From: an uncultured Rhodospirillales bacterium
GTDB lineage: Bacteria; Pseudomonadota; Alphaproteobacteria; ATCC43930; CGMCC-115725
Assembly: GCA_903897565.1 (NCBI GenBank)
Contig: CAIUCF010000320.1
Span: forward strand, 1-33,501
DNA length: 33,501 nt
Direction of reading: 5' to 3'
The notes under the pieces: model-generated
Told to the model about the DNA's origin: nothing
What the model saw: only the letters and a program-made list of their open reading frames with translations
Database searches by the model: none
Translations under genes and position numbers: made by a program
Shown: positions 935-24,514 of the stretch, one piece after another
Numbering within the stretch: the first letter of the stretch is position 1
How the letters are laid out: each line of letters begins with the position of its first letter

Positions 935-2416
935 ATGCCCGATGGCGGCGCTTTGCTCCATGATAAACTTCGCGAAGAATCGCTACGGGACCGGGGCGAC
1001 AACCGGTCGGGGTGGAGTGTGTCACAAGGTTCGAGCTTTTCGTCTCTCCAGAAAATCTGCCTTCGGCAGGTCTGGGGAATTATTGCGGCGATCATGCTGT
1101 CGGGCCTTGCCGCGTGTTCCGGCGCGCCGCCAAAGCAAGCCGCCGTCGTCCAGCCACCGCCGCCCGCGGTCTTCAATCCCCAGGCGATGGCGACCGTCTT
1201 GGTCGCCGGGGATTCCGAACAACCCGTCTTCGACAATGCCATCAATTACATGCACGCCGCACTCGCGGGCGTCGGTTTGCCGGAATCGGCCATCCACCAA
1301 CTCTCGGTGCGCTACGCCGCGGCCAACGAGCCGGCGACCCTCGACCGGATCCTCACGCGAATCGCGGCAACCACAGCATCGGCCAATGGCGGCTGCCTGG
1401 TCTACATGACGTCGCACGGCGTCTACGGCCAGGGGCTCTATGTCGAGCTGTCCGATTCCGTATTGACCCCTGCAGCGCTCGACGGCGCCCTGCGCAAAGG
1501 CTGCCGTGACGCGCCGACGGTGGCGATCGTCTCGAGTTGCTTTTCGGGGCAGTTCGCGGCGCCGCCGCTTGCACAGGCGAATCGGATCATCATGACGGCC
1601 TCGGCACCGGACCGTTCATCGTTCGGCTGTGGTGCCGACTACACTTATACCTATTTCGACGACTGCCTGATGGGCTCGCTCGACGGTGCCATGACGTGGC
1701 AGGAAATCTTCCGCAGAACCGCCGGCTGCGTGGCCAAGCGCGAGGCGCAGAGCGGTGCCCAGCCCTCCCAGCCCCGCGCCGCCTTCGGCGCCCAAGTCGC
1801 CGATCTGCCGAGCCCATGGCGGCGGCCCGACGCCACCGCTCCCGTCGGCCTCGTGTTCCAGCCCAGCGGCCGGTCATTCGATCCGGCGCGGGTGCCGCTG
1901 TCGCAGGCCGACCGCAAGTCGATGCAGGATGAGCTGGACTATTACGCCAAGGCGGCGCTGCCGAAGGCGCTTGCGATCGCACCGATCGGCTTCGCCACCG
2001 CGGTGGCCCCCGACGGCACCGGCAAACGAACCGCGGATGACGTTGCGCGAATCGCGCTGCAACGCTGCGAATGGCTGACGGGCGGCGGTTGCGTGCTGTA
2101 CGCGCGCGACACCCAAACGACGGCGTTGCTGCCGTCGGGCCTGCCGCCCTTCCATCCGCAAATCCTCACTCGCGAGGGGACGCTCCGGGCCGATACCGTG
2201 CCGTTCATCCGCGACGACCAGCGCAATCAAATGGTCGATTATGTGGCGCTGAAAGGCCCGAAGGCCCTCGCGCTCAGCCCCAGCCACGATGAGATCAGCA
2301 TCGGAACCGGCGAGACCCAGGCCGCGGCCAGCCAGGTGGCGCTTGCCCGCTGCCAATTCGTCATGGAGAACTGTATCCTGTACGCTGAGGATAATCGCAT
2401 CGTCCTCGGCTGGTAG
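935..2416 (+). CDS. Lipoprotein with a clan CD (C13/legumain-like) cysteine peptidase domain plus two C-terminal DUF4189-like Cys-pair repeats
   Basis: Lipobox 'LSGLAAC' follows a K/R-containing hydrophobic stretch. The His/Cys dyad context 'YMTSHG' ... 'VAIVSSCFSG' ... 'DRSSFGCG' matches bacterial C13 family proteins as I remember them. Two C-terminal repeats ('ADDVARIALQRCEWLTGGGCVLYARD' and 'AAASQVALARCQFVMENCILYAED') look like DUF4189. The start is uncertain: ATG 935, GTG 1019 or ATG 1094. Confidence 0.75.
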   Translation: MPDGGALLHDKLREESLRDRGDNRSGWSVSQGSSFSSLQKICLRQVWGIIAAIMLSGLAACSGAPPKQAAVVQPPPPAVFNPQAMATVLVAGDSEQPVFDNAINYMHAALAGVGLPESAIHQLSVRYAAANEPATLDRILTRIAATTASANGGCLVYMTSHGVYGQGLYVELSDSVLTPAALDGALRKGCRDAPTVAIVSSCFSGQFAAPPLAQANRIIMTASAPDRSSFGCGADYTYTYFDDCLMGSLDGAMTWQEIFRRTAGCVAKREAQSGAQPSQPRAAFGAQVADLPSPWRRPDATAPVGLVFQPSGRSFDPARVPLSQADRKSMQDELDYYAKAALPKALAIAPIGFATAVAPDGTGKRTADDVARIALQRCEWLTGGGCVLYARDTQTTALLPSGLPPFHPQILTREGTLRADTVPFIRDDQRNQMVDYVALKGPKALALSPSHDEISIGTGETQAAASQVALARCQFVMENCILYAEDNRIVLGW

Positions 2417-12824: not shown

Positions 12825-13868
12825 TCACGGCGCGGGGTTGGGGATACGCTGATGGATGGCATTGATCTCCTTGATGATCTCCGGCGACAGCGTCAGGTCG
12901 AAGGCGTCGATATCCGCCTTCAACTGCGCCAATGAAGTAGCCCCGATAATCGTCGCCGTGACGAAGGGCTGCGCGGCAATGAAGGCGAGCGCCATCTGCG
13001 CCGGATCGAGGCCATGCTTGCGGGCAAGCTCGACGTAGGCGTCGGCCGCTGTCTGAACCAAGTCGCCGGCGTAGCGGCTGAACCGGGTGAAGACCGTAAT
13101 CCGAGCGCCGGCCGGCCGGGCACCGCGGTAATACTTGCCCGTCAGGAATCCCATGGCCAAGGGGGAATAGGCCAGCAGCCCCAGCCCGTCGAGATGGGCG
13201 AATTCCGCCAACCCGATCTCGAACACCCGATTCAGGAGGTTATAGGCATTCTGGATCGAGGCCGGCTTGGTCGTGCCTCGATGGGCAGCAAGGCCGAGGA
13301 ATTGTGCTGCGCCCCAGGGCGTTTCATTGCTTAGCCCGTAAGACAGGATCTTGCCTTCGCGGATCAGCTCGGCCAAGGCGTCGACCGTCTCCGCGATCGG
13401 GGTCGACTGCTCGTCGGTCGGGGTGTCGAACCCGAGCCTGCCGAAGGTGTTGGTCTGTCGATCCGGCCAATGGAGCTGGTACAGATCGATGCGATCGGTC
13501 CGCAACCGCTTCAGGCTGCCCTCGACGGCGGCGCGGAGATTGGCGCGATCGAAGCGGCTCTTGCCGTTGCGGAGATAGTCCATGCCGCCGCGGCTCGGCC
13601 CGGCGATCTTGGTTGCCAGCACGACCTGGTCACGGGTGCCGGCGGCCGCGAACCACGAGCCGATGTAGCTTTCCGTCAGGGTATAGGTCTTGGCCGTCGG
13701 CGGCACTGGGTACATCTCGGCCGTATCGATGAAATTCACACCGCGGTCGAGCGCGTAGGACAGCTGCTGGTGCGCTTCAGCCTCGGTGTTCTGCTCTCCC
13801 CAAGTCATTGTGCCGAGACAGCACGCGCTGACCTTGAAGCCGGTATCCGCAAGTTGACGATAGTGCAT
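12825..13868 (-). CDS. NADP(H)-dependent aldo/keto reductase (Tas-like)
   Basis: ATG at 13868 gives 'MHYRQLADTGFKVSACCLGTMTWGE...GVNFIDTAEMYP', the classic AKR N-terminus. 347 aa. Confidence 0.85.
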   Translation of the reverse strand: MHYRQLADTGFKVSACCLGTMTWGEQNTEAEAHQQLSYALDRGVNFIDTAEMYPVPPTAKTYTLTESYIGSWFAAAGTRDQVVLATKIAGPSRGGMDYLRNGKSRFDRANLRAAVEGSLKRLRTDRIDLYQLHWPDRQTNTFGRLGFDTPTDEQSTPIAETVDALAELIREGKILSYGLSNETPWGAAQFLGLAAHRGTTKPASIQNAYNLLNRVFEIGLAEFAHLDGLGLLAYSPLAMGFLTGKYYRGARPAGARITVFTRFSRYAGDLVQTAADAYVELARKHGLDPAQMALAFIAAQPFVTATIIGATSLAQLKADIDAFDLTLSPEIIKEINAIHQRIPNPAP

Positions 13869-14062
13869 AGCGCGCTCGTTTCCGTGGAGAGGAAGACCGG
13901 ATTTTCGTATCACATGCCGCACGGCGGCAACTATCGCGTTTTCGCCAGGCCGAGCAGCGCCCGCGACAGCGAGCGCTGTTTCACCGGCGCGGCCCATCGG
14001 GCAAGATGCAGCTCCGGGAGTTGTTCAGGATTTTCATTCATGGCGAAGGGCGGTAGGAGGCG

Positions 14063-15103
14063 ATGACGGATACTGTCCCCCTGACGATCGCCTTCCGCGT
14101 CGACGGCAATCACGCCATGGGGCTCGGCCATCTGATGCGCTGCCGGGCGCTCGCCGAAGCCCTGATCGCGGCGGGTCATCGCTGCAGCTTTCTCGTGGCT
14201 GCGCCAGACCCCGAGGTAACCGCTCCACTCAAGGCGGCTGGCATCGCGATTCTGGCGATCGATCCGGCCCGGGACCGCGACGCCGCGGAAACCCTGACCC
14301 AATGCCGTGCGCTCGGCGCCGCGGCTCTGGTGATCGATGGCTACCATTTCGAGGACGGCTGGCGCCGCGCCGCGCGCGCCGTCGCGACGCCGATCGTGGC
14401 CTTTGCCGATGGCCCGCTACGTCCAGGCCATGCCGACCTGCTGATCGATGCCGCCAGCCCCGAGTCCAGCGATCCGTCTGAACTGTTCGGTCCCGACTAC
14501 GTGCTCCTGCGGCGCGAACTCGTCGAGGCTGCCCGTTTGCCGCTGTTACCGATTGAGCAGCGTCCGACGATCCTGATTACCTTTGGCGGCTCCGATCCGC
14601 TGGCGCTGACCCATCGGGTCACGATAAGCCTGTTCGGCCTCCTGCCGGACACCCAGCTCGCCGTCGTGATCGGGCCAGCGACCGAAGGCGGCGACGCCGT
14701 AGCCCGCAGCCTTCGCGCGCTCGGCCGGCGCGTTACGGTACATCGTGCACCGCCTGCGATGGGAGAGCTGATGCGCCATGCCGGGCTCGCCGTCTCGGCG
14801 GCCGGCGGGACAGTCGGGGAATTGGCAGCCCTCGGCGTTCCGGCGGTGTTGGCCGTCGTCGCCGATAACCAGCTTGCTGGTGCGCAGGCTTGCGTGGCGG
14901 CCGGCTGGTGCTCGGGCGTTGACGCACGCACCGATCCGGCCGCCTCGAACCGGCTCGCCCTCGCTGCGGTTCATCTTTGGCTTCATCCAGAAAAGCGCGC
15001 GCTCTGGGCGGCGCGAGCTCGGTCGGCCGTCGATCCAGGCGGCGCGGATCGGGTCGCCGCGGCGCTACTCGCGGCGATCGCCCGCCGCAAAGCAGGAAAT
15101 TAA
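14063..15103 (+). CDS. pseG: PseG-like UDP-2,4-diacetamido-2,4,6-trideoxy-beta-L-altropyranose hydrolase (GT28-C fold)
   Basis: AGGAGG (14055-14060) lies before the ATG. N-terminus 'IAFRVDGNHAMGLGHLMRCRALAEAL'. Central 'ILITFGGSDPLALT'. C-terminal 'SAAGGTVGELAALGVPAVLAVVADNQ'. These three blocks are the pattern I associate with the PseG family (TIGR03590). Confidence 0.75.
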   Translation: MTDTVPLTIAFRVDGNHAMGLGHLMRCRALAEALIAAGHRCSFLVAAPDPEVTAPLKAAGIAILAIDPARDRDAAETLTQCRALGAAALVIDGYHFEDGWRRAARAVATPIVAFADGPLRPGHADLLIDAASPESSDPSELFGPDYVLLRRELVEAARLPLLPIEQRPTILITFGGSDPLALTHRVTISLFGLLPDTQLAVVIGPATEGGDAVARSLRALGRRVTVHRAPPAMGELMRHAGLAVSAAGGTVGELAALGVPAVLAVVADNQLAGAQACVAAGWCSGVDARTDPAASNRLALAAVHLWLHPEKRALWAARARSAVDPGGADRVAAALLAAIARRKAGN

Positions 15104-15199: not shown

Positions 15200-16288
15200 G
15201 TGGCGACTATCCAGATCCAGGGCGTTCGTGTCGCCGGCATCGCTGCCGCGGTGCCCGAAGGCACCCGCGGTGTCGCGGATGAAGCCGCAATCTTCGGTGT
15301 CGACGAAATGGAGAAGACCGCCAAGGTGATCGGCGTCCGCTCCCGCCATATCGCGCCGCCGCAGCTCTGTACCTCCGACCTCTGTCACGCCGCCGCCGTT
15401 CGCCTGCTCGACGACCTCGGCTGGGCTCGTGACAGCGTCGACGGCCTCATCTTCGTCAGCCAGTCGCCCGATTACGAGCTGCCGGCCACCGCCTGCACCC
15501 TGCAGGCGCGGCTCGGCCTGCCCGACCGTTGCGCCGCCTTCGACGTCAATCTCGGCTGTTCCGGCTTCGTCTACGGGTTATGGCTCGGCAGCCAGATCGT
15601 CGGTGGCGGCGGCATCAGGCGCTTGCTGCTGCTCGCCGGCGACGTCAGCACGCGCCGCCTCGCTCCCCACGACAAATCGGTGAAGCCCTTGTTCGGAGAC
15701 GCCGGCACGGCGACAGCGATCGAGTTCTCGCCCGGTGCTGCACCCATGGCATTCGAACTCGGCACCGACGGCGCCGGCTTCGCCAGCATCATCATCCCGG
15801 CGAGCGGCTTCCGTCAGCCGCGCACCGATGAAACCAAGGCTCTCTTCGCCGGCGCGGACGGCATCGAGCGCAGTGCCGAGAACATCTATATCAACGGTGC
15901 CGAGGTCTTTAATTTCACGATCAAGCGCATTCCGCCGCTGGTCGAAACCCTGATGGCGAGCGCCGGCAAGACCCGGGAGCAATACGATCACTTCGTCTTT
16001 CATCAGGCCAATGCCTTCATGCTGCAGCATTTGGCCAAGCGCCTCAAAATTCCGACAGAGAAGTTCGTCCTGGCGATGGAGACGGTCGGCAATACCAGCA
16101 GCGCCTCGATCCCGCTCGCCATCACCATGGCGCTGCGCGAATCCCTCGCCGAGCAACCCCGCGAGATGCTCCTCGCCGGTTTCGGAGTCGGCCTCAGCTG
16201 GGCTGCGGCATCGCTGACCCTCGACAGGCCGGTCGTTCCGGCGCTTGTTATCGTTCCCGACGATACTCCCGCGATGGCCGCAGGCTAG
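15200..16288 (+). CDS. 3-oxoacyl-ACP synthase III (FabH-like KAS III)
   Basis: GGAGG (15191-15195) lies before the GTG at 15200. The Cys-His-Asn triad contexts 'NLGCSGFVYGL', 'FVFHQANAFM' and 'VGNTSSASIP' are all present. Confidence 0.85.
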   Translation: MATIQIQGVRVAGIAAAVPEGTRGVADEAAIFGVDEMEKTAKVIGVRSRHIAPPQLCTSDLCHAAAVRLLDDLGWARDSVDGLIFVSQSPDYELPATACTLQARLGLPDRCAAFDVNLGCSGFVYGLWLGSQIVGGGGIRRLLLLAGDVSTRRLAPHDKSVKPLFGDAGTATAIEFSPGAAPMAFELGTDGAGFASIIIPASGFRQPRTDETKALFAGADGIERSAENIYINGAEVFNFTIKRIPPLVETLMASAGKTREQYDHFVFHQANAFMLQHLAKRLKIPTEKFVLAMETVGNTSSASIPLAITMALRESLAEQPREMLLAGFGVGLSWAAASLTLDRPVVPALVIVPDDTPAMAAG

Positions 16289-16290
16289 AG

Positions 16291-17046
16291 ATGTTCAACC
16301 CCCTCGATTTCACCGGCCGACGCTTCCTGGTCACCGGCGCTTCCTCCGGCATCGGCGAGGCGACCGCGATCATGCTCGGTCGCCTCGGCGGCCAGGTCGT
16401 ACTGGCGGGACGCGATCTCGATCGCCTGAACCAGGCGGTGGCCGCGGTCCCCGGGTCCGGCCACAGCGTTGCGTCGTTCGATCTCGGCGATACTGATGCC
16501 ATTCCCGGCTGGGTCGCCAAACTTGCCGCTGACGGGCCGTTCCATGGCCTCGCCCATTGCGCCGGCCTGCAGACCCTGCGCCCGCTGAAAAGCGCCAGTG
16601 CCGCCTTCGTCGAGGAAATGCTGCGCGTCAATGTCGGCGCCGCGCTGGCGATCGGCCGCGCGATTCGCCAGCGCAATGTCGCTGCCAAGCCCGCCAGCCT
16701 GGTGCTGATCTCCTCCACGGCCGGCATGACCGGTCAGCCCGGCAACGTCGTCTACAATGCGACCAAGGGCGCGATCATTGCCGCGGTCAAGGGCATGGCC
16801 CTCGAACTGGTCCGCGACGACATCCGCGTCAATGCCGTGGCCCCTGCCCTGGTGCGGACACCGATGTCCGAGAAATCGATGAAGATCTGGTCGCCTGAGC
16901 AATTGCAGGCGGTCCTCGCGATCCACCCGATGGGCTTCGGCACCGCCGACGACGTCGCCAACGCGATTGTCTTTCTCCTGAGCGACATGGCGCGCTGGAT
17001 CACCGGAACAACGGTCGTGGTCGATGGCGGATACACGGCCCAATAA
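16291..17046 (+). CDS. SDR family oxidoreductase (FabG-like 3-ketoacyl reductase)
   Basis: The start is 2 nt after the KAS III stop. 'VTGASSGIGEA' (TGxxxGxG) and 'SSTAG...YNATKGA' (Ser-Tyr-Lys). Confidence 0.85.
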   Translation: MFNPLDFTGRRFLVTGASSGIGEATAIMLGRLGGQVVLAGRDLDRLNQAVAAVPGSGHSVASFDLGDTDAIPGWVAKLAADGPFHGLAHCAGLQTLRPLKSASAAFVEEMLRVNVGAALAIGRAIRQRNVAAKPASLVLISSTAGMTGQPGNVVYNATKGAIIAAVKGMALELVRDDIRVNAVAPALVRTPMSEKSMKIWSPEQLQAVLAIHPMGFGTADDVANAIVFLLSDMARWITGTTVVVDGGYTAQ

Positions 17047-18175
17047 CGCCTCCACGCTGGCGGCCAACCGCCTGGGTCCGGGTGACTACACTGATCCCGC
17101 GATCCTTGCGGCCGAGCGCGCGCACATCTTTCGCAGACATTGGCATTTCGTCGGCCTCGATCGCGACCTCGCCGAGCCCGAGTCCTGGTTTCTGACCAAG
17201 GTCGCCGGAACCGAGATCATCATCCAGCGCGTTGCCGGGGATGGGTTGCGCGCGTTCGTCAATGTCTGCCCGCACCGCTACAATGCCCTCGTCAACGCCC
17301 CGAACGGCCGCGGCCGGCTGCGTTGCGGCTACCATCTCTGGTCGTTCGACGACAACGGCTTGGCTGCTCAGGTCCCCCTGCGCGCCGGCGTCGCGTTGGA
17401 GGCGTGTCAGACCGCCGCGCTGTCGCTGCGCCGTTGGTCGGTCGAGCGCTGTGGCGCGCTCATCTTCGTCGCCGAGCAGCCGGAGCGGCCGCTCGCAGCC
17501 TTCCTCGGACCGCTCGGCGCTGAGCTGGCGACGCTCTCGCGGGGACTCGGCACCGAGGTCCTGAGATTCTCCCAGGACATCGCCGCGAACTGGAAGGTGA
17601 TCCTGCAGAACACGGTCGAGTTCGATCATGCCTTCGGCGTTCACCCGGAAACCTTCGCTGCGATGGTCGAGCGACCGCTCCATCTTGTCCCTCACGATGC
17701 GGTGGCGCCCCACATCGCCTATCACACGCGGATGAAACCGCGCGATGGGCTGAAGCCGATCGAGCGCCGGATCGAGGACATCTTCGCCCGCTCGGTGATC
17801 CCGCAAGCCGAGGGCTACACCCACGCGACATTGTTCCCTTCCGCGACGATCGGCACGACGGCAAACCGGATCTTCGCCCTCATTCGCTACCAACCACTGG
17901 CGCCGGACCGGACGCACGCCGAGTACCGGCTGTTCATCTCGCAGATCACCGGTCTGACGGCCGTCGAGCAGGCCATTCTCGATCGCGTGGTTCCGGTCGA
18001 TGTCGCCTTCACCCAGCGCCTGCTCGAGGAAGATCGCCAGATCTGCGAGTCGGTGCAACGCGGTCTTAGCAATGCGCCCGCCGATCTTGCTGGCATCCTG
18101 ATGCCGGGAGAGAGTCTGGTCGGGCGATTTCAGCAGTATTGGCTCGACGCCATGCGCGCAGGCGCATTAACTTAA
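17024..18175 (+). CDS. Rieske non-haem iron oxygenase, alpha-subunit type (intact)
   Basis: Rieske ligands 'CPHRYN...CGYHLWSF'. Mononuclear iron region 'NWKVILQNTVEFDHAFGVH' and a distal 'EEDRQICESVQRG'. It overlaps the SDR stop by 23 nt. Confidence 0.85.
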   Translation: MADTRPNNASTLAANRLGPGDYTDPAILAAERAHIFRRHWHFVGLDRDLAEPESWFLTKVAGTEIIIQRVAGDGLRAFVNVCPHRYNALVNAPNGRGRLRCGYHLWSFDDNGLAAQVPLRAGVALEACQTAALSLRRWSVERCGALIFVAEQPERPLAAFLGPLGAELATLSRGLGTEVLRFSQDIAANWKVILQNTVEFDHAFGVHPETFAAMVERPLHLVPHDAVAPHIAYHTRMKPRDGLKPIERRIEDIFARSVIPQAEGYTHATLFPSATIGTTANRIFALIRYQPLAPDRTHAEYRLFISQITGLTAVEQAILDRVVPVDVAFTQRLLEEDRQICESVQRGLSNAPADLAGILMPGESLVGRFQQYWLDAMRAGALT

Positions 18176-18258: not shown

Positions 18259-18492
18259 ATGACACCCACCGAATTCTACGCCGCGCTCGACGAAATGCTC
18301 GAGCTCGACCCCGGCACCATCACCGGAAACGAACGGCTCGAGGATGTCGAGGCGTGGGATTCGCTGGCCGTGATCAGCTTCATCGCACTCGTCGACGAGA
18401 AGTTCGACATCCTGGTCGAGACAGAGAAGCTCGCGGCCGCCGAATCGGTCGGCGATCTCTACGCACTGGCGACCCGCCAGAAGGCCGCCTGA
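18259..18492 (+). CDS. Acyl carrier protein (dedicated, 77 aa)
   Basis: An acidic small protein with the phosphopantetheine attachment context 'EDVEAWDSLAVISFIALVDEKF' (DSL Ser). RBS GAGGA. Confidence 0.8.
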   Translation: MTPTEFYAALDEMLELDPGTITGNERLEDVEAWDSLAVISFIALVDEKFDILVETEKLAAAESVGDLYALATRQKAA

Positions 18493-18511: not shown

Positions 18512-19327
18512 GTGAGCACCGTGAACCCGGCACGGGTCAAATATCGCCAGATTGAACTCGCCGGCCAGCGCGTCGGCCTCCTCACCGCAGGTCCGCCCGA
18601 GGCCGTGCCGATGCTGTTGCTGCATGGCTTCTCGGGCGACGCCCTGACCTGGCAGTTCAATGTCGGTGCACTCGCCCGCCATCACCGCGTCACCGCGATC
18701 GACCTTCCCGGCCATGGCCTGACCGAAGCGACCGAGCAGATCGGCTATTGGCGTGGCATGGTGGATTGGGTCGCGGAGATCGTGGCGGCCCTCGAACTCC
18801 CGCCAGCGCACCTCGCCGGGCATTCCCTCGGCGCCCGCATCCTGCTCGGCGGCCTGGAGGAGGAAAAGTTGGCCGGGCTCAGCCTCAGCCTGATCTCCTG
18901 CGCCGGCATCTCGCCGAGCTATGATTACGAATTCCTCGATCGGCTCTCGCGAATCGAGACGATGGCCGACGCCGTCGCCTGCGTCCTGCGCCTGCTCGGC
19001 GATGCCCCCGACCAGCCGGAACGTCTCGCCAAGGGCCTGTTCCAGAAACTGACGACCCCCGCCGCCAAGGCAGCCTTGCGTGCCTATCTCGCCAGCAATT
19101 TTGCCGAAGGCCGGCTTCTGCCGGCCGCGCCGGTGCGCTGGGACGCGCTCGCCTGCCCGTTGCAGATCATCTGGGGAGCCGATGACGGCATCGTACAACT
19201 TCCGCCACCCGATTGGCTCCCGGCCGGAATCGCCGTGCATCTGCTGGATCGCGTCGGACATCTTCCGCACATGACGGCTGCCGATCGCGTCAATGCGCTG
19301 TTGGTCGCCCATGCCGGAGCGACGTGA
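18512..19327 (+). CDS. Alpha/beta-fold hydrolase (possible acyltransferase or thioesterase)
   Basis: 'MLLLHGFSGDALTW', 'AIDLPGHG', the nucleophile elbow 'GHSLGA', and a C-terminal 'DRVGHLPHM' (catalytic His region). Confidence 0.8.
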   Translation: MSTVNPARVKYRQIELAGQRVGLLTAGPPEAVPMLLLHGFSGDALTWQFNVGALARHHRVTAIDLPGHGLTEATEQIGYWRGMVDWVAEIVAALELPPAHLAGHSLGARILLGGLEEEKLAGLSLSLISCAGISPSYDYEFLDRLSRIETMADAVACVLRLLGDAPDQPERLAKGLFQKLTTPAAKAALRAYLASNFAEGRLLPAAPVRWDALACPLQIIWGADDGIVQLPPPDWLPAGIAVHLLDRVGHLPHMTAADRVNALLVAHAGAT

Positions 19328-19905
19328 TGAGCGCGACCAATCTGCGCAGCGGCGTCCTCAGCTACCCCGCGCTCGGCGAAGAGCACGCCGCATTGGTCCT
19401 CGGCTGGCGAACGCGCCCGGATATCACCCAATACCTGCTGACGGATATCGTCCCGGATCTCGACGCCCAGAAGCGCTGGCTGGCGGCTTGCGTCGAGAGA
19501 CCGGATTTCCTCCATCGCCTGATCGCGGTCGACGACGTTCCGGTCGGCTATTGCTCGATCACGACCACGGATGCGAGCGCCGGGATAGGCGCGATCGGGG
19601 TCTATCTTGCCGAAAAGACGTCGCGCAGCGGCATCGCCAGCTTCAATTTCATCCATATCCTCAATCACGCGCTACTGACGCTCGGATTGTTCAAGATCGT
19701 CAACCACATCATGAGCGCCAATGAACGCGTGATCCGCAGCCAGGTCATGAACGGCTACCGTCCGGTCGGGATATTGCGCCAGCACGCTGTCAAACATGGC
19801 GAGCGCCACGATCTCCACGTCTTCGAGCAACTGCGCGAGGATTGGCTGAAGCATCGCGAGAAGTTCCGAGACTATCGCGATCTCGACGGCATCGAACGGC
19901 GCTAG
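19327..19905 (+). CDS. pseH: PseH-like GNAT N-acyltransferase (UDP-4-amino-4,6-dideoxy-AltNAc N-acetyltransferase family)
   Basis: The ATG overlaps the hydrolase stop (GTGATGA). 192 aa. Layout: 'LGEEHAALVLGWRTRPDITQYL', 'KRWLAAC', 'HRLIAVDDVPVGYCSIT..IGAIGVYL', 'IVNHIMSANERVIRSQVMNGYRPVGILRQH...HDLHVFEQLREDW'. This matches the PseH family pattern (TIGR03585) as I remember it. Confidence 0.65.
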   Translation: MSATNLRSGVLSYPALGEEHAALVLGWRTRPDITQYLLTDIVPDLDAQKRWLAACVERPDFLHRLIAVDDVPVGYCSITTTDASAGIGAIGVYLAEKTSRSGIASFNFIHILNHALLTLGLFKIVNHIMSANERVIRSQVMNGYRPVGILRQHAVKHGERHDLHVFEQLREDWLKHREKFRDYRDLDGIERR

Positions 19906-19908
19906 ACC

Positions 19909-20859
19909 ATGGCCGACCTCACGGAAACGCCAGCGCTCGGGCATGAGGCTTACTGGAAGGCCGAGAGTTTCGCCGCGGAGATGGGTGCCGTGTTCGCGCG
20001 GTCATGGCTTTTCGCCGGCCTCACGACCGCGTTTCCACCGGGGACGCATCCGCTGGACCTCGCCGGCATGGCGCTCACGATCGATGCCACGCCTACCGGT
20101 TTCTCGGCACGCTTTGGCGAGGCCGTGTCGGATGTCGATCGATGCGGCCAGCTGCTGTTCGTGCGTCCGGTCTCCGGGGGCCCCGGCCTTGCAGAGTTCC
20201 TCGCACCTTACGCGACGCTCCTGGAGACGATTTCGCAGGCCCTCGTCGAGGTCGACCATGTCGCGCGCATGGTGGCGCCCGTGAACTGGAAGGCCCTGGT
20301 CGAGAACACGCTCGACGATTGCCACGCGGCCACGGTTCACACCAAGAGCCTGCAGCCGGCGATGGATCCGGCCTGGCTGGCGCGCTACCGGCCCGACCGC
20401 CACGGCGCCCACAGCATGATGGGCAATGATCTCGGCGCGGCGGACGCGACGTTCTGGTCGCGTCTCGCCGAACGGCTGCCGCTCGCCCGCCACCATCACG
20501 ACGCCGTCTACAAGCACCTGTTCATCTTTCCGAATCTCTACGTCGCCACGTTTTTCGGGGCGATGGTGATCCTCCACCGGATCGATCCGATCACAGCGGA
20601 ATCGGCGGCGCTCGAATTGCTCACCTGCCTGCCCGTCACCCGCGCCATGAGCAATCGCGAGCGGGCGCTGCACGCGGCGGTGCTGCGCGATCTCGTCGCC
20701 AAGGCTGAGATCGTGGTCGAAGAGGACATGGCGGTCTGCCGCCTCGCCCAGCGCGGCCACCATTTCGCCGTCCACCCCGGCATCCTGGGCACGCGGGAGT
20801 GCCGAGTCGGCGATTTTCAGCGGACCCTGGTCCAGGCCATCGCCGAAGCCGTGGGATAG
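19909..20859 (+). CDS. Rieske-oxygenase alpha-subunit homologue retaining the catalytic (mononuclear Fe) domain but lacking the Rieske cluster ligands
   Basis: The N-terminal helix 'YWKAESFAAEMGAVFARSWLFAG' is present. No CxH...CxxH occurs anywhere, and the segment between 'ALTIDATPTG' and 'CGQLLFVRP' is too short. The catalytic motif 'NWKALVENTLDDCHAATVH' and distal 'EEDMAVCRLAQRG' are present. Confidence 0.75.
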   Translation: MADLTETPALGHEAYWKAESFAAEMGAVFARSWLFAGLTTAFPPGTHPLDLAGMALTIDATPTGFSARFGEAVSDVDRCGQLLFVRPVSGGPGLAEFLAPYATLLETISQALVEVDHVARMVAPVNWKALVENTLDDCHAATVHTKSLQPAMDPAWLARYRPDRHGAHSMMGNDLGAADATFWSRLAERLPLARHHHDAVYKHLFIFPNLYVATFFGAMVILHRIDPITAESAALELLTCLPVTRAMSNRERALHAAVLRDLVAKAEIVVEEDMAVCRLAQRGHHFAVHPGILGTRECRVGDFQRTLVQAIAEAVG

Positions 20860-20866
20860 CGCCGCG

Positions 20867-21502
20867 CTATTCGGGCGACGGCGCGATGAAATCGAACCGC
20901 GCCACCTCAATTCCCCGATTACCCGCGGGGAGCGTGATCTCGACGCTGCTCGCGCGATGATCGCCGTGAATGCAGAGATTGCGGAAGCGGATCTCCGCGA
21001 CGCCCTCCAGCTCCGGCCCGTCACCGGTTCCGAGCAGCCGGTGTCCGAGAGCCGGCGTTACGGCGAGAGCCTCGATGCGGCTCCCCAAGGCTTCGATCAG
21101 TGGCTCCGTACCCGGATCCACCCTCACGAATACCAGGCGGCCGAGGATCTCGACCTCGACCCGACGCAGCGCCAACCGCTTTCGGGCCGTGGCATCGAGC
21201 CCGAAGAGCAGGTCATTGTCGGGAATACCGATTGGTATGCCATGGGCATTGTAGACCCAGCCGTGATAAGGGCAACGCAACGGACCGACGCCGCAGCCGG
21301 CCTCCCGCATCTGGGTACCGCGATGCGAGCACACGTTCCAGTATCCGCCCAGGGCGCCGCGAAAATTCTGCACCGTGATCGAGAGCTCCGGCAGGTCGAC
21401 GGTCACATGCTGGCCGTCGACCGCGAGCCGGTCGCGAATGGTCAGGCAGAACCAACCGGTTCGCCATGATACTGCTGTCAACGGATCACCAATCCTCGCC
21501 AT
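20867..21502 (-). CDS. Stand-alone Rieske [2Fe-2S] domain protein (oxygenase alpha subunit lacking the catalytic domain)
   Basis: 'CSHRGTQM...CPYHGWVY' Rieske ligands, then 'GRLVFVRV'. Only about 90 further residues follow, with no NWK..D..H....H motif. 211 aa. Convergent with the previous gene, with a 7-nt gap. Confidence 0.75.
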   Translation of the reverse strand: MARIGDPLTAVSWRTGWFCLTIRDRLAVDGQHVTVDLPELSITVQNFRGALGGYWNVCSHRGTQMREAGCGVGPLRCPYHGWVYNAHGIPIGIPDNDLLFGLDATARKRLALRRVEVEILGRLVFVRVDPGTEPLIEALGSRIEALAVTPALGHRLLGTGDGPELEGVAEIRFRNLCIHGDHRASSVEITLPAGNRGIEVARFDFIAPSPE

Positions 21503-21565: not shown

Positions 21566-23533
21566 TTGACCGCGTTTCTCGTCCCAAAGCCAGGTATCAT
21601 CAAGACTGTGACGACAAGCAACAGCGCCGAAACCTCCGCCACGTTCCTCGCAGCGCGAATTCTGGCCGCGCTCAATGAGGGCGCGCTGGAACAAGCCATC
21701 GGCGATCTTCAGAAGCTGCAGCAGGACGGCAGTGCCCCGGCCCTGACTCTGCATCTGGTCGGGCTCGCGTCGTTGCGCGTCAATGAGGTCGGCAAGGCCG
21801 TCGCAGCGTTCGAGGAGGCCCATCGCCTCGATCCCCAGCTCAACGAACCCGTCGAGGTTCTCGCGATCCTCCACGCCAAGCTCGGCCGTCTAACGGACGG
21901 GCTGTACTACGGCAAGCTCTCGATCGCGGCGCAGAATCGCTTCCCCGTCGCCGGCATGATCCCGGATTGGCTCGGCAAGTTCGAGGAATCCTTCTTCAAC
22001 ATGCAGGATCGCCCGCTGCTGGCCCAGGCCGAGCGGGCAATGGCGTCGGGCCATTATCTGGAAGCGATCCGGTGTTTCCGTCAGGCGGCCGAGATCGACG
22101 GCAATGCCGCGGAGACGTGGCGCGGCCTCGCGACAGCGCATCGCCTCGCCGGGCAACCCTTCGAGAGCGTCGTCGCCCTGCGCAAGATCGAGGCGATTGC
22201 CGCGCCGGAGGCCCGCGACTATGCCGCCCTCGGTGAGGCGCTGCAGATGCTGGGCCGCTGGGACGAAGCGATCGAGTGCCATGAGCACGCCGTAACGCTG
22301 GCGCCCCGGGATGAGCAATTCGGCTGGGCGGCACTGCGCTGCCGGCTGCGGCAACCGGCGACCGAGGAGGCGATCGCCGCGGCCACCCAAATCTGGGCCG
22401 CCGCCAATCGTCGAGAGCCGATCTTCGACGCGCCACCCTGGCCGGACGTCACTGCGCTGGAGCGCCGCCCGGTCCGCCTCGGTATCTATACCGGGAGTTG
22501 GCTCGACCCTGTTGCGCTCGCCCTGGTCGTGCCTCTGCTGCTTGCGCTGCCCCCGGACCGGATCGAGCTTTGTGTCTATTCCGACGGACCGGCAGACACC
22601 GAACTCGCCCGCCGGCTGCGCGGCCACGCCAAGCGATGGGAAAGCCTGACCGATCTCGACGACGAAACCGCCGCCTTCACCCTGGGCAACGAGGAACTCG
22701 ATGTCCTGATCGACCTCGATGGCCCCTTGCGGCGGACATGGCGGCCGCTGCTGTTCCAGTACCGCCCGCATCCGATCGCGTTGAGCCTACTTGACCTGCC
22801 CGTGACGGCCATGGCTGCCGGCTATTCCCACGCCCTGACCGATGCTCCGATCGGCTTGGCGGACCGCCAGCAGGTCGGCATTCCCGGGATCGCGACCAAT
22901 CTTCCAAGCGATCTTTCCCTCCTGATCCAGCCCGTACCTGATCGGGCCCTGACCGAGGGCGGTATCGTTTTCGGCACGCTCGTGCCCTATGGCCGGATTT
23001 CGATGACCGAGACGGTGCTCTGGGCCGATCTGCTGGCACAGGTGCCGGGCTCGACGCTCGCGCTTGAGCCCGATCGTCTCGGAGGCGAGCCGGGGCTCGC
23101 CGAAATTCTCGATCGCTTCAACCGCATCGGACTGGCCGACCGGGTCCGGGTCGAGCCGCGCGACCAGGTCGCGACCGCCTATCTCGAGCGCGTCGATCTC
23201 CTGCTCGACGCCCCCGGATCGCCGCACTACGAAGAGGCCGTGATGGCGATCGCCGCCGGTATGCCGGTCATCACGGTTCCCGGAACGACGCCGGCAACCC
23301 GGGCACTGGGCAATTGGCTCGGGTCGACGCTCGGCCTCGGTGAACTCATCGCCCATGATGGCGAAAGCTATGTCGCGCTGGCGCGCAACGCCGTCTCGAG
23401 CTCGGCAGGGCCTGCCCTGCGGCAACGGCTTCGCGATGCTGTGGACCGCGAGCGCAAGACCGGCGCGCCGACGCGTGCACGACTGTTCGATGCCGCCCTT
23501 CGCGAACTCCTTGCCCGGGTGAGGGCAGAATAA
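21566..23533 (+). CDS. TPR-repeat protein fused to a GT41-like (SPINDLY/O-GlcNAc-transferase family) glycosyltransferase domain
   Basis: The N-terminal ~270 aa are TPR-like helical repeats (e.g. 'GKAVAAFEEAHRLDPQLNEP', 'YLEAIRCFRQAAEIDGNAAETW', 'WDEAIECHEHAVTLAPRD'). The C-terminus follows the COG3914 pattern: 'VRLGIYTGSW', 'LDVLIDLDGPLRRTWRPLLFQYRPHPIAL', 'IVFGTL', 'VDLLLDAPGSPHYEEAVMAIAAGMPVITVPGTTPATRALGNWL..LGLGELIA'. The start is TTG 21566 or GTG 21608. Confidence 0.75.
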   Translation: MTAFLVPKPGIIKTVTTSNSAETSATFLAARILAALNEGALEQAIGDLQKLQQDGSAPALTLHLVGLASLRVNEVGKAVAAFEEAHRLDPQLNEPVEVLAILHAKLGRLTDGLYYGKLSIAAQNRFPVAGMIPDWLGKFEESFFNMQDRPLLAQAERAMASGHYLEAIRCFRQAAEIDGNAAETWRGLATAHRLAGQPFESVVALRKIEAIAAPEARDYAALGEALQMLGRWDEAIECHEHAVTLAPRDEQFGWAALRCRLRQPATEEAIAAATQIWAAANRREPIFDAPPWPDVTALERRPVRLGIYTGSWLDPVALALVVPLLLALPPDRIELCVYSDGPADTELARRLRGHAKRWESLTDLDDETAAFTLGNEELDVLIDLDGPLRRTWRPLLFQYRPHPIALSLLDLPVTAMAAGYSHALTDAPIGLADRQQVGIPGIATNLPSDLSLLIQPVPDRALTEGGIVFGTLVPYGRISMTETVLWADLLAQVPGSTLALEPDRLGGEPGLAEILDRFNRIGLADRVRVEPRDQVATAYLERVDLLLDAPGSPHYEEAVMAIAAGMPVITVPGTTPATRALGNWLGSTLGLGELIAHDGESYVALARNAVSSSAGPALRQRLRDAVDRERKTGAPTRARLFDAALRELLARVRAE

Positions 23534-23539
23534 CGGCGG

Positions 23540-23758
23540 TTAGTTCTCGACGAGCCGGAACAGGCGGGAATCGCTGAGCGCGTCGGCGCCCACTGTCTTA
23601 CTCAGGCTGCCGTCATTGCTGCAGATCAGCCGGACATGGAGGAGGCCGTCGATGGCGACGAACATGTCACGCACCACCCAGGACGGGGACGGTCGGGAGA
23701 AATGCATGCTCAGCGGTGGCTGGTAGGTCTGGCCGAGCGCGATCTCTTGTTTCGCCAT
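23540..23758 (-). CDS. Hypothetical small protein (72 aa)
   Basis: GGGAG lies 9 nt upstream of the ATG at 23758. GC-rich third codon positions throughout. No motif recognised. Confidence 0.55.
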   Translation of the reverse strand: MAKQEIALGQTYQPPLSMHFSRPSPSWVVRDMFVAIDGLLHVRLICSNDGSLSKTVGADALSDSRLFRLVEN

Positions 23759-23815
23759 GGCGGTGTCGCTCCCGATCGGGTCGTCGAAATTAGCGCAGGC
23801 GCAGCAATTGTTCGG

Positions 23816-23843
23816 GGCAGTCGGCGGTCACCCGCCGACTGCC
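23816..23843 (-). terminator. Perfect 12-bp GC-rich stem-loop 12 nt downstream of the FYDLN_acid gene stop (candidate intrinsic terminator without a U-tract)
   Basis: GGCAGTCGGCGG-tcac-CCGCCGACTGCC read directly. No T/U run on either side, so terminator function is not assured. Confidence 0.45.
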
Positions 23844-23854
23844 GGGAACAGGAC

Positions 23855-24229
23855 CTATTCCGGCGGCAGGTTGCCGATGCCGGTGATGTCCTCGGCGTCG
23901 TCGCCGAGTTCGGAGATATCCTCGATGACGTCCTCGCCATCAGCATCCTCGTCAGCGTCGACGGCCTCTTCGTCATCGACCGCTTCGAGCTCCTCGACCT
24001 CGGCATTGGGCTCGCTCTCGACGATGCCGAGCGGTGTCGCCACACCGAAGACGCTCTTGGCGCGACCACCCTGCTTCTTGATGAAGGTATCGCCGCGCGA
24101 CTTCAGTCCGGCCTCGGGGTCGAACGGCACATGGCATTTCGGGCAAACCCGCGGCTCGCGATTGAAATCATAATATCGCGCCTGACAGGCCTGACAGATG
24201 CGTTTGGTGCCGAGGTCGGGATGGGCCAA
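23855..24229 (-). CDS. TIGR02300 'FYDLN_acid' family protein (zinc-ribbon N-terminus, acidic C-terminus)
   Basis: TTG start at 24229 with GAGGAAG upstream. 'LAHPDLGTKRICQACQARYYDFNREPRVCPKCH' (CxxC...CxxC and a YYDFN variant of the FYDLN motif), followed by a long D/E-rich tail. The upstream 62 codons of ORF 23855..24415 are unlikely to be coding. Confidence 0.8.
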   Translation of the reverse strand: MAHPDLGTKRICQACQARYYDFNREPRVCPKCHVPFDPEAGLKSRGDTFIKKQGGRAKSVFGVATPLGIVESEPNAEVEELEAVDDEEAVDADEDADGEDVIEDISELGDDAEDITGIGNLPPE

Positions 24230-24514
24230 TGAAACTTCCTCTATGAAAATCTGAACGAAAGCCGCCGGTCGGTTGCCTTGAACCCGACGGACCTCACGAA
24301 TTTTTCGACCTAAAAGATCGCGTTCTTGCCGCCGGCGGTGCCTCCACCACGGGCGATAGGAGCCCGGCGCATTTCGCTGCGTGCCGGGCAAGAAGAGCAC
24401 GCGCGCGCCGAACATCCGGTGCCGAGCCTCGTATGAGCAGCCACCCTAGCTGAAATTCGTAGCCGGCAGGCAACTAATTCGCCTGCGCCGGGCACGCTTG
24501 CGCCGGGCTCACGG

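Follow-up and report, generated by a model that had tools for sequence, protein, structure and literature searches.

A PseH-like acyltransferase beside a fatty-acid cassette in a Rhodospirillales flagellin glycosylation cluster probably uses a 3-hydroxyacyl donor

The window analysed in this work is a stretch of 33,501 nucleotides of DNA from an uncultured Rhodospirillales bacterium. It is contig C320, the longest in a fragmented metagenome-assembled genome (MAG) of 938 contigs and 4.78 Mb (65% G+C, 95% complete). Our subject is the gene for a GNAT N-acyltransferase that resembles PseH, the acetyltransferase of pseudaminic-acid biosynthesis. The gene lies in a string (Table 1) that opens with a PseG-like gene and that also encodes a beta-ketoacyl-ACP synthase III (KSIII), a short-chain dehydrogenase/reductase (SDR), an acyl carrier protein (ACP), an alpha/beta-fold hydrolase and Rieske-type oxygenases. 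We propose, with a probability of roughly 60%, that the GNAT moves a 3-hydroxyacyl group made by this cassette to the future N7 of pseudaminic acid. It probably adds a hydroxyacyl rather than an acetyl group because its distinct branch of the family sits beside a private fatty-acid cassette.

Table 1. The gene string of the window and its signals. L numbers designate loci that were compared with the window.
Feature	Position	Strand	Basis and conservation
PseG-like UDP-sugar hydrolase, first gene of the string	14063-15103	+	TIGR03590 159.5 bits vs cut-off 153.55; same position in L004, 60% identity
KSIII (FabH-like) condensing enzyme	15200-16288	+	Pfam ACP_syn_III, ACP_syn_III_C; 84% identity to L004, ~48% to L020-L022
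SDR, probable 3-ketoacyl reductase	16291-17046	+	Pfam adh_short_C2, KR; FabG-type NCBIfam matches below cut-offs
Full-length Rieske non-haem-iron oxygenase	17024-18175	+	Pfam Rieske, Ring_hydroxyl_A; kept in L004, L019, L020-L022, L069, L071, L078, L083
Dedicated ACP	18259-18492	+	Pfam PP-binding; invariant WDSLAVISF motif with Ser35 (alignment A3)
Alpha/beta-fold serine hydrolase or acyltransferase	18512-19327	+	Pfam Abhydrolase_6, Abhydrolase_1
GGAG, Shine-Dalgarno-like	19316-19319	+	Read from sequence; 7 nt 5' of the GNAT ATG
PseH-like GNAT N-acyltransferase	19327-19905	+	Pfam Acetyltransf_3; TIGR03585 57.2 bits vs cut-off 93.1
Oxygenase catalytic domain without Rieske cluster domain	19909-20859	+	Pfam Ring_hydroxyl_A only; adjoins the GNAT in L004, L019, L071, L083
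Stand-alone Rieske [2Fe-2S] protein, presumed partner of 19909-20859	20867-21502	-	Matches the Rieske part of oxygenase alpha-subunit models; kept in L004, L019, L071, L083
Tetratricopeptide repeat (TPR) and GT41-like transferase, FlmG-like candidate flagellin pseudaminyl-transferase	21566-23533	+	Pfam TPR repeats, Glyco_transf_41; layout as in Caulobacter FlmG (PMC7591256), likened by description

The stop codon of the hydrolase gene (TGA, 19325-19327) shares one nucleotide with the start codon of the GNAT gene (ATG, 19327-19329) inside the motif GTGATGA, as a preliminary description of this DNA had reported. An in-frame GTG at 19324 offers an alternative start with a 4-nt overlap; the ATG is the likelier start because of the GGAG before it, and the GNAT homologues begin at the equivalent Met (alignment A1). 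The same description had the GNAT gene coupled to both the hydrolase and the ACP genes. For the hydrolase this is literally so, whereas the ACP gene is merely close, with a 19-nt gap between it and the hydrolase gene; its position upstream of the GNAT, also reported there, is correct. The GNAT was further said not to adjoin pseG, pseC or pseI, which is true to the letter, although pseG heads the same string five genes upstream. On the 3' side, 3 nt separate the GNAT from the gene at 19909. Stop/start overlaps are common in operons, and the overlap between hydrolase and GNAT is therefore unremarkable by itself. What exceeds chance is that the GNAT is tightly joined to varying cassette genes in distant relatives: to the hydrolase in L004 and L079, to the SDR in L007 and to the cluster-less oxygenase catalytic subunit in L083. 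A scan for promoters and terminators returned nothing above the shuffled background, so the limits of the operon are drawn from spacing only.

The TIGR03585 (PseH) model is the best NCBIfam match of the GNAT, with an E-value of 2.1e-15 at a score below its cut-off. The model is narrow, its cut-off being passed in only 5 of 401 alphaproteobacterial genomes. It under-calls PseH in Alphaproteobacteria, since there are plain pse operons with sub-threshold GNATs (L067, 64 bits; L073, 56 bits). The assignment to the PseH family made in the preliminary description can be kept in the wide sense of a PseH-like GNAT that is the only candidate in its genome, but not in the sense of the curated cut-off. 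The AlphaFold2 model of the GNAT (pLDDT, the predicted local distance difference test, 86.9; pTM, the predicted template modelling score, 0.81) was set against solved PseH, and its fold does resemble that of Helicobacter pylori PseH (4ri1), which ranked third in a Foldseek search with TM scores of 0.77/0.82 and an E-value of 3e-13. The fold alone is not specific to PseH, because SpeG ranks equally high in the same search. When the single GNAT sequence was searched against Protein Data Bank (PDB) sequences, the matches were weak (phosphinothricin acetyltransferase, 3.8e-5; Campylobacter jejuni PseH, 0.007), and a profile of 13 homologues retrieved 538 representative clusters at E <= 1e-10. Alignment A1 also contains a conserved C-terminal tail of about 20 residues.

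In principle the gene could code for an unrelated housekeeping acetyltransferase, of the RimJ/RimL or aminoglycoside type, whose place in the operon is incidental. One public source does label a homologue 'RimJ/RimL family protein N-acetyltransferase', and there are weak NCBIfam matches to arsinothricin, phosphinothricin and AAC(6') models. We consider this extremely improbable: all of these alternative family matches fall far below their cut-offs, the same gene set stays linked across several families of Alphaproteobacteria despite rearrangement, and the spread of the clade that contains the window GNAT is patchy and island-like, with occurrences in 12 of the 201 genomes of the order searched and in 6 of 20 genera.

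Apart from PseG, the other enzymes of the pathway are encoded elsewhere in the genome. PseB and PseC pass their curated cut-offs and lie on C684 among FlaF, flagellin, FlgK, FlgE and FlhB, while PseI passes its cut-off and is encoded on C672, where its gene immediately follows a second KSIII gene. A PseF-like cytidylyltransferase on C318 is 56% identical to its counterpart in the cluster of Aliidongia. The system is of the flagellin pseudaminic-acid type with an alphaproteobacterial FlmG (PMC7591256). A search for another PseH candidate in this genome found none, the next PseH-like match scoring 23 bits, and the window GNAT is the sole candidate for the N4-acylation step. We suggest that it would be the PseH-equivalent of the Rhodospirillales flagellin pathway, acylating the 4-amino group of UDP-4-amino-4,6-dideoxy-beta-L-AltNAc, which would become N7 of pseudaminic acid.

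The second KSIII gene (L018:167-1195) abuts pseI (L018:1199-2260). The clusters of Aliidongia, Stellaceae and L078 likewise have a second SDR-KSIII pair, there together with a second ACP (ACP2) and an AMP-ligase, and the acyl chain may therefore exceed C4 or be made in two rounds. For the ACP2 and AMP-ligase modules of L023 and L078, no counterpart was found in the genome of the window at an E-value of 1e-8.

The GNAT might instead serve the carrier-protein line, priming the ACP, or acylate an amine other than that of the nucleotide sugar, such as another sugar or a flagellin lysine. Priming of this sort is done in some polyketide synthases by GNAT-type loading domains, which decarboxylate malonyl before acetyl is loaded, and Pfam and NCBIfam scans of the cluster found neither a malonyl-CoA:ACP transacylase (CoA, coenzyme A) nor an obvious ACP-loading enzyme. 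The score below the PseH cut-off and the high rank of SpeG point the same way, as does a related GNAT in L083 that lies in a polysaccharide cluster (Wzy_C, glycosyltransferases) and not in a flagellin cluster. This explanation seems to us improbable, because it would leave the genome without an N4-acylation step. Moreover, the GNAT fills the PseH slot of the pse operons in L071 and L056, PseG-GNAT fusions occur in the wider family, and the Ser/Thr pair of the amino-altrose site of H. pylori PseH is kept (S77/T79).

The association of the GNAT with the cassette extends well beyond the window. Relatives at 38-84% identity retain KSIII, SDR, ACP, hydrolase and Rieske genes around the GNAT, with the order shuffled; such cassette neighbours are found at L004, L007, L019, L020/L023 (Aliidongia), L022/L025 (Stellaceae), L021 (Azospirillum oryzae), L066, L069, L071 and L072. 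Gene order is identical to that of the window in L004 (81% identity) and becomes SDR-GNAT-ACP-hydrolase in a relative at 61% identity, and the SDR gene lies directly 5' of the GNAT in L007, L021, L072 and L078. In Aliidongia (47%), one strand carries flagellin, PseF, PseI, PseG and ACP and the other GNAT-KSIII-Rieske-SDR-hydrolase-ACP2-AMP-ligase-SDR-KSIII, an arrangement to which that of the Stellaceae MAG is similar. L071 unites everything in a single cluster: pseB, pseC, SDR, a split Rieske pair, GNAT, Rieske, pseI, ACP, hydrolase, SDR and KSIII. By contrast, the GNATs that exceed the PseH cut-off (L058, L059, L060 and L062) belong to plain pseB-C-G-H-I operons without cassette genes and are just 24-25% identical to the window GNAT.

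A comparison with PseH from canonical operons, which the preliminary description had suggested, places the window GNAT in a separate clade. In a maximum-likelihood tree of 82 sequences, with context groups defined by gene context, all 10 GNATs whose context is fatty-acid-synthase-like fall in one 30-row clade (SH-aLRT 100), to which no PseH from a plain operon belongs. All of the 12 clade neighbourhoods that were read have KSIII, SDR, ACP, hydrolase or Rieske genes. Because the groups had been defined by context, two further clade members were looked up blind. One (P0027) lies in the order ACP-SDR-GNAT-ACP2-AMP-ligase-KSIII-SDR between pseB/C and pseF/I, and the other (P0034) in the order SDR-hydrolase-GNAT with a 4-nt overlap.

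Some features of these neighbourhoods deserve mention in their own right. The cluster-less oxygenase subunit and the stand-alone Rieske protein stay paired beside the GNAT even in distant relatives (L071; L083:314-1938), and in L083 the two genes are co-directional and the stop codon of the catalytic subunit overlaps the GNAT start. It may be the oxygenases, and not the ACP, that accompany the GNAT most constantly. In the L083 stretch (L083:1-12507, Azospirillum-like), the neighbours of the GNAT and Rieske genes are glycosyltransferases, a methyltransferase and a Wzy_C protein. It is a polysaccharide locus and not a flagellin island, and the module is therefore not limited to flagellin glycosylation. 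Between its FlmG-like gene and an EEP/PLD pair, L004 carries a further set (L004:14198-18286) composed of an SDR, a MaoC dehydratase, a hot-dog dehydratase, a TetR regulator and an AMP-binding enzyme. The window lacks this set and has only an unassigned open reading frame (ORF) of 198 aa at 23636-24232, which has a counterpart in L019.

At the 5' end of the string, an ORF at 13470-14066 (+ strand, 198 aa) was rejected as a gene, as it overlaps the 5' part of an opposite-strand aldo-keto reductase gene (12825-13997, with a true start probably near 13868) and has no family match. With this ORF most likely spurious, some 200 nt of divergent intergenic DNA precede pseG. Unrelated to the GNAT, an ORF at 935-2416 (+ strand, 493 aa) matches an EACC1-associated caspase-type domain at 26.7 bits, far below the cut-off.

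Gene fusions in the wider family bear on both the acceptor and the donor. PseG and GNAT are fused in P0153 and P0060, and since such fusions occur (in both orders, PseG-GNAT and GNAT-PseG), the wider GNAT family is anchored to PseH. In P0046 (L056:5291-6076), a GNAT is joined to a PP-binding (ACP) domain; this protein shares 32% identity with the window GNAT along its full length and occupies the PseH slot of the operon Maf-PseF-PseI-PseG-[GNAT-ACP]-AMP-ligase...PseC-PseB. Of all the observations, this architecture most strongly suggests that a carrier protein can supply the acyl group to PseH-like GNATs. P0073 (L057:1250-2224) combines the GNAT with a hydratase domain of MaoC type, and enzymes of this type are known to produce (R)-3-hydroxyacyl-CoA. 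As both proteins lie outside the 30-row clade, they support the principle rather than the case of the window. The same is true of the carrier itself: the carrier domain of P0046 has no BLAST similarity to the window ACP, so that the fusion speaks for the principle and not for orthology of the carriers.

An AMP-binding enzyme and an ABC importer with an NMT1_2 binding protein are encoded 3' of P0046, and the operon looks like a system that imports or activates a carboxylic acid and places it on a pseudaminic-acid precursor. Two other fusions in the wider PseH-like family join a formyltransferase to a GNAT (P0118) and a GNAT to a glyoxalase (P0104). Together with the GNAT-MaoC protein, they suggest that non-acetyl N-acyl groups are reached by several routes independent of one another.

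To compare active sites, the GNAT was mapped on H. pylori PseH (4RI1) by profile hidden Markov model (HMM) alignment, with numbering equal to the chain index minus 6 (checked at Asn34, Trp38 and Met39) and residue roles taken from the literature (PMC4363471). In this weak alignment of 25 bits, Ser78/Thr80 of the sugar and water site correspond to S77/T79, and the pantetheine and pyrophosphate contacts Asn131, Lys133 and Gly103 correspond to N132, R134 and G102; all five are invariant in A1. The acyl end of the site differs. By the same weak alignment, the acetyl contacts Leu91, Leu125 and Glu126 are replaced by I90, N126 and H127, and the general acid Tyr138 by Q139. N126 and Q139 are invariant and H127 nearly so in the 13 close homologues of A1, and Gln predominates at position 139 across the 30-row clade. 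Canonical alphaproteobacterial PseH has Trp at 90, Cys, Gly or Ala (once Thr) at 126, mostly Glu at 127 and His or Tyr at 139, where the subclade of the window has Ile/Val, Asn, His/Gln and Gln. In the sister subclade, position 90 is Thr, Ser or Pro and the loop Gly at 102 is gone. This pattern of residues would be consistent with an acyl site that has been remodelled and is more polar.

In the sister subclade and in the branch of the GNAT-ACP fusion, Lys, Arg, His, Glu or Ile replaces the pyrophosphate-contact Gly in columns 102/104. Loss of the Gly at 102 might reflect a donor without pyrophosphate, namely phosphopantetheine on ACP; the window protein keeps its Gly.

The retained contacts are also what would be expected if the GNAT were an ordinary acetyl-CoA enzyme of the PseH/FlmH type, producing a 2,4-diacetamido sugar, with the product of the cassette attached by the alpha/beta-fold enzyme as some other substituent (an O-acyl group, an acyl group at N5 after deacetylation, or a group on another part of the glycan). 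N132, R134 and G102 agree with this proposal. N4 acylation is required by every Pse pathway, with the window GNAT as the sole candidate for it, and the hydrolase, whose Ser-Asp-His triad is intact, adjoins the ACP gene in the window and in L004, L019, L007, L023, L025 and L071. We nevertheless hold this proposal to be rather unlikely. It leaves unexplained why the cassette accompanies this GNAT clade and not canonical PseH, and why the acetyl contacts and the general acid have been replaced. The hydrolase, furthermore, was not seen in the stretches read of L078, L069 and L083, and the carrier domain of L056 is part of the GNAT protein itself.

In the hydrolase, the HGF motif, Ser105 in GHSLG, Asp225 and His250 are invariant (alignment A2), and its best NCBIfam match is to the alpha/beta part of the AcoC-type model PRK14875, at 177.7 bits and below the cut-off. 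Against PDB sequences it matched generic alpha/beta hydrolases only (best 6i8w, 58 bits), and from these matches no label such as thioesterase, transacylase or O-acyltransferase can be drawn. Certain enzymes of the alpha/beta fold shift 3-hydroxyacyl groups from ACP. The hydrolase might therefore pass the acyl group to CoA, act as a thioesterase, load the ACP, or be the true transferase itself.

Prediction of a complex between the GNAT and the window ACP gave a score of 0.51, which is in the weak range, against 0.02 for the best control; at least 98% of the contacts agree between runs, and the partner has a pLDDT of at least 84. Of 80 solved complexes, 58 reach the mark used for such predictions, as do 2 of 110 mismatched pairs; these counts hold only roughly here, where our own alignments were used. 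Among those that pass the mark, scores of 0.60 or less are found for only 7 of the 80 solved complexes and for both of the mismatches.

Taken as a biosynthetic scheme, the proposal would run as follows. The KSIII, the ketoreductase and the ACP would make a short 3-hydroxyacyl thioester, of which 3-hydroxybutyryl is the simplest product; the chain might be extended by the KSIII that adjoins pseI or be further hydroxylated by the Rieske oxygenases. The GNAT would transfer this 3-hydroxyacyl group in place of acetyl, the acylated product would be processed by PseG, PseI and the PseF-like enzyme, and the FlmG-like transferase would place the sugar on flagellin. What our analysis shows directly is the order and coupling of the genes, the completeness of the pathway, the structure of the clade, the conservation of its neighbourhoods, the fusions and the replaced residues. 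We infer the identity of the acyl group, the acceptor and the carrier of the donor, which could be ACP directly or CoA by way of transacylation by the hydrolase. A more specific version, in which the clade takes its acyl group directly from the dedicated acyl-ACP, and in which the chain built by KSIII and ketoreductase is hydroxylated by the Rieske enzymes to give a pseudaminic acid with an N7-(di)hydroxyacyl group, on flagellin or polysaccharide, that has not been described so far, is possible but tentative. The 3-hydroxyacyl thioester put forward as donor in the preliminary description is supported in part: the clade-wide link to KSIII, SDR and ACP, the distant GNAT-ACP fusion and the replaced acetyl contacts point to a donor other than acetyl-CoA.

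Several points weigh against hydroxyacyl transfer by the GNAT. All the evidence in our analysis is computational, and the GNAT clade is known from sequences alone. The residue mapping follows a profile alignment of low score, backed only by matching secondary-structure elements of the model, and I90 is no smaller than Leu91 of H. pylori PseH. With N132, R134 and G102 kept, an ordinary acyl-CoA, including acetyl-CoA, is still a possible donor, and the complex score for GNAT and ACP is a weak one. The context groups of the tree were set by the very feature that was then counted, with only two blind checks, and the contigs of the out-of-clade members P0049 and P0044, at about 0.7-1 kb, have no readable neighbours. 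The cluster holds another possible acyl-transferring enzyme in the alpha/beta hydrolase. Finally, Caulobacter crescentus FlmH, which is divergent from PseH and encoded beside flmG, belongs to a di-N-acetyl pathway (PMC7591256).

The window GNAT is comparable to characterised PseH (H. pylori, 4RI1; C. jejuni, 4XPK; TIGR03585) in its GNAT fold, in the sugar-site Ser/Thr and the Asn, Lys/Arg and Gly contacts, and in its pathway context, with pseG in the operon and pseB, pseC, pseI and pseF in the genome. It differs in its sub-cut-off score, in its identity of only ~24-25% to the alphaproteobacterial PseH proteins that pass the cut-off, in the changes of Tyr138 to Gln and of Leu125/Glu126 to Asn/His, and in the KSIII/SDR/ACP/Rieske cassette that accompanies its clade in the neighbourhoods read and is missing from plain pse operons.

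FlmH of C. crescentus has low identity to C. jejuni PseH and is encoded beside the TPR-glycosyltransferase FlmG, and its pathway is described as acetylating and has been reconstituted in Escherichia coli (PMC7591256). By description, the window shares with it a divergent PseH analogue and an FlmG-like transferase in an alphaproteobacterial flagellin pseudaminic-acid system, but a KSIII/SDR/ACP cassette is not described for FlmH.

A change of acyl group at N7 has a precedent in the capsule of Acinetobacter baumannii, where psaABCDEF leads to Pse5Ac7Ac and psaABCGHF to Pse5Ac7(R-3-hydroxybutanoyl) (PMC9676051, Table 7). In the loci for the 7-N-(3-hydroxybutanoyl) form, psaD and psaE (PseG and PseH; nucleotidase and acetyltransferase) are swapped for psaG and psaH (PMC9676051). 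A donor change of PseH type has therefore already been inferred genetically. This partly pre-empts the new specificity within the PseH family that the preliminary description had suggested, although the precedent is itself one of genetic inference only. Compared by description, both systems have a PseG/PseH-type pair that varies with the N7 acyl group, the divergent PseG and the GNAT of the window sharing one string. The A. baumannii module serves capsule and not flagellin, and because this K-locus module is without dedicated ACP, KSIII and Rieske genes, its donor is presumably a metabolic acyl-CoA.

Private fatty-acid genes in flagellin glycosylation islands also have parallels. The viosamine island of Pseudomonas syringae comprises vioA, vioB, vioS (KSIII), vioR (3-oxoacyl-ACP reductase) and acp and leads to N-(3-hydroxybutyryl)viosamine on flagellin; the modified sugar is lost in a vioR knockout, and VioB is annotated as a dTDP-viosamine acetyltransferase (PMC3927599). 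Like the window, this island and the orfA-N island of P. aeruginosa PAK combine a private KSIII, ketoreductase and ACP. The viosamine island differs in its acceptor, dTDP-viosamine instead of a pseudaminic-acid precursor, and has neither Rieske oxygenases nor an alpha/beta hydrolase. VioB is not known to be a GNAT. In group II polar-flagellin islands of Aeromonas, genes for an ACP, a 3-oxoacyl-ACP reductase and an AMP-dependent synthetase lie directly 3' of pseH; they were taken as fatty-aldehyde (luxC/luxE) functions, and no changed PseH donor was proposed (PMC7874193). By description, these islands resemble the ACP2/AMP-ligase modules of L023, L025, L056 and L078 but are without the pairing of KSIII with Rieske genes.

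The N-acyl groups of pseudaminic acids vary (acetyl, formyl, 3-hydroxybutyryl and others), and they influence antigenicity as well as recognition by phages or antibodies. A study from 2024 called the enzymes for their N-modifications 'largely unknown' (PMC11040635), and in the literature searched we found no characterised PseH homologue with a hydroxyacyl donor. The locus and its clade provide testable candidates: an acyltransferase, a cassette that likely makes its donor, and discriminating positions at 90, 126, 127 and 139. If the GNAT uses acetyl-CoA, the product of the cassette and its transferase are still to be found. If it draws directly on acyl-ACP, it and its relatives would be the first enzymes for non-acetyl N-acyl decorations of nonulosonic acids. 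Should the hydroxyacyl proposal be true, the enzymes would aid the prediction of glycan chemistry from genomes and serve as tools for making N7-modified pseudaminic acids chemoenzymatically. In this way, a question about the biosynthesis of nonulosonic acids is reduced to a direct enzyme assay.

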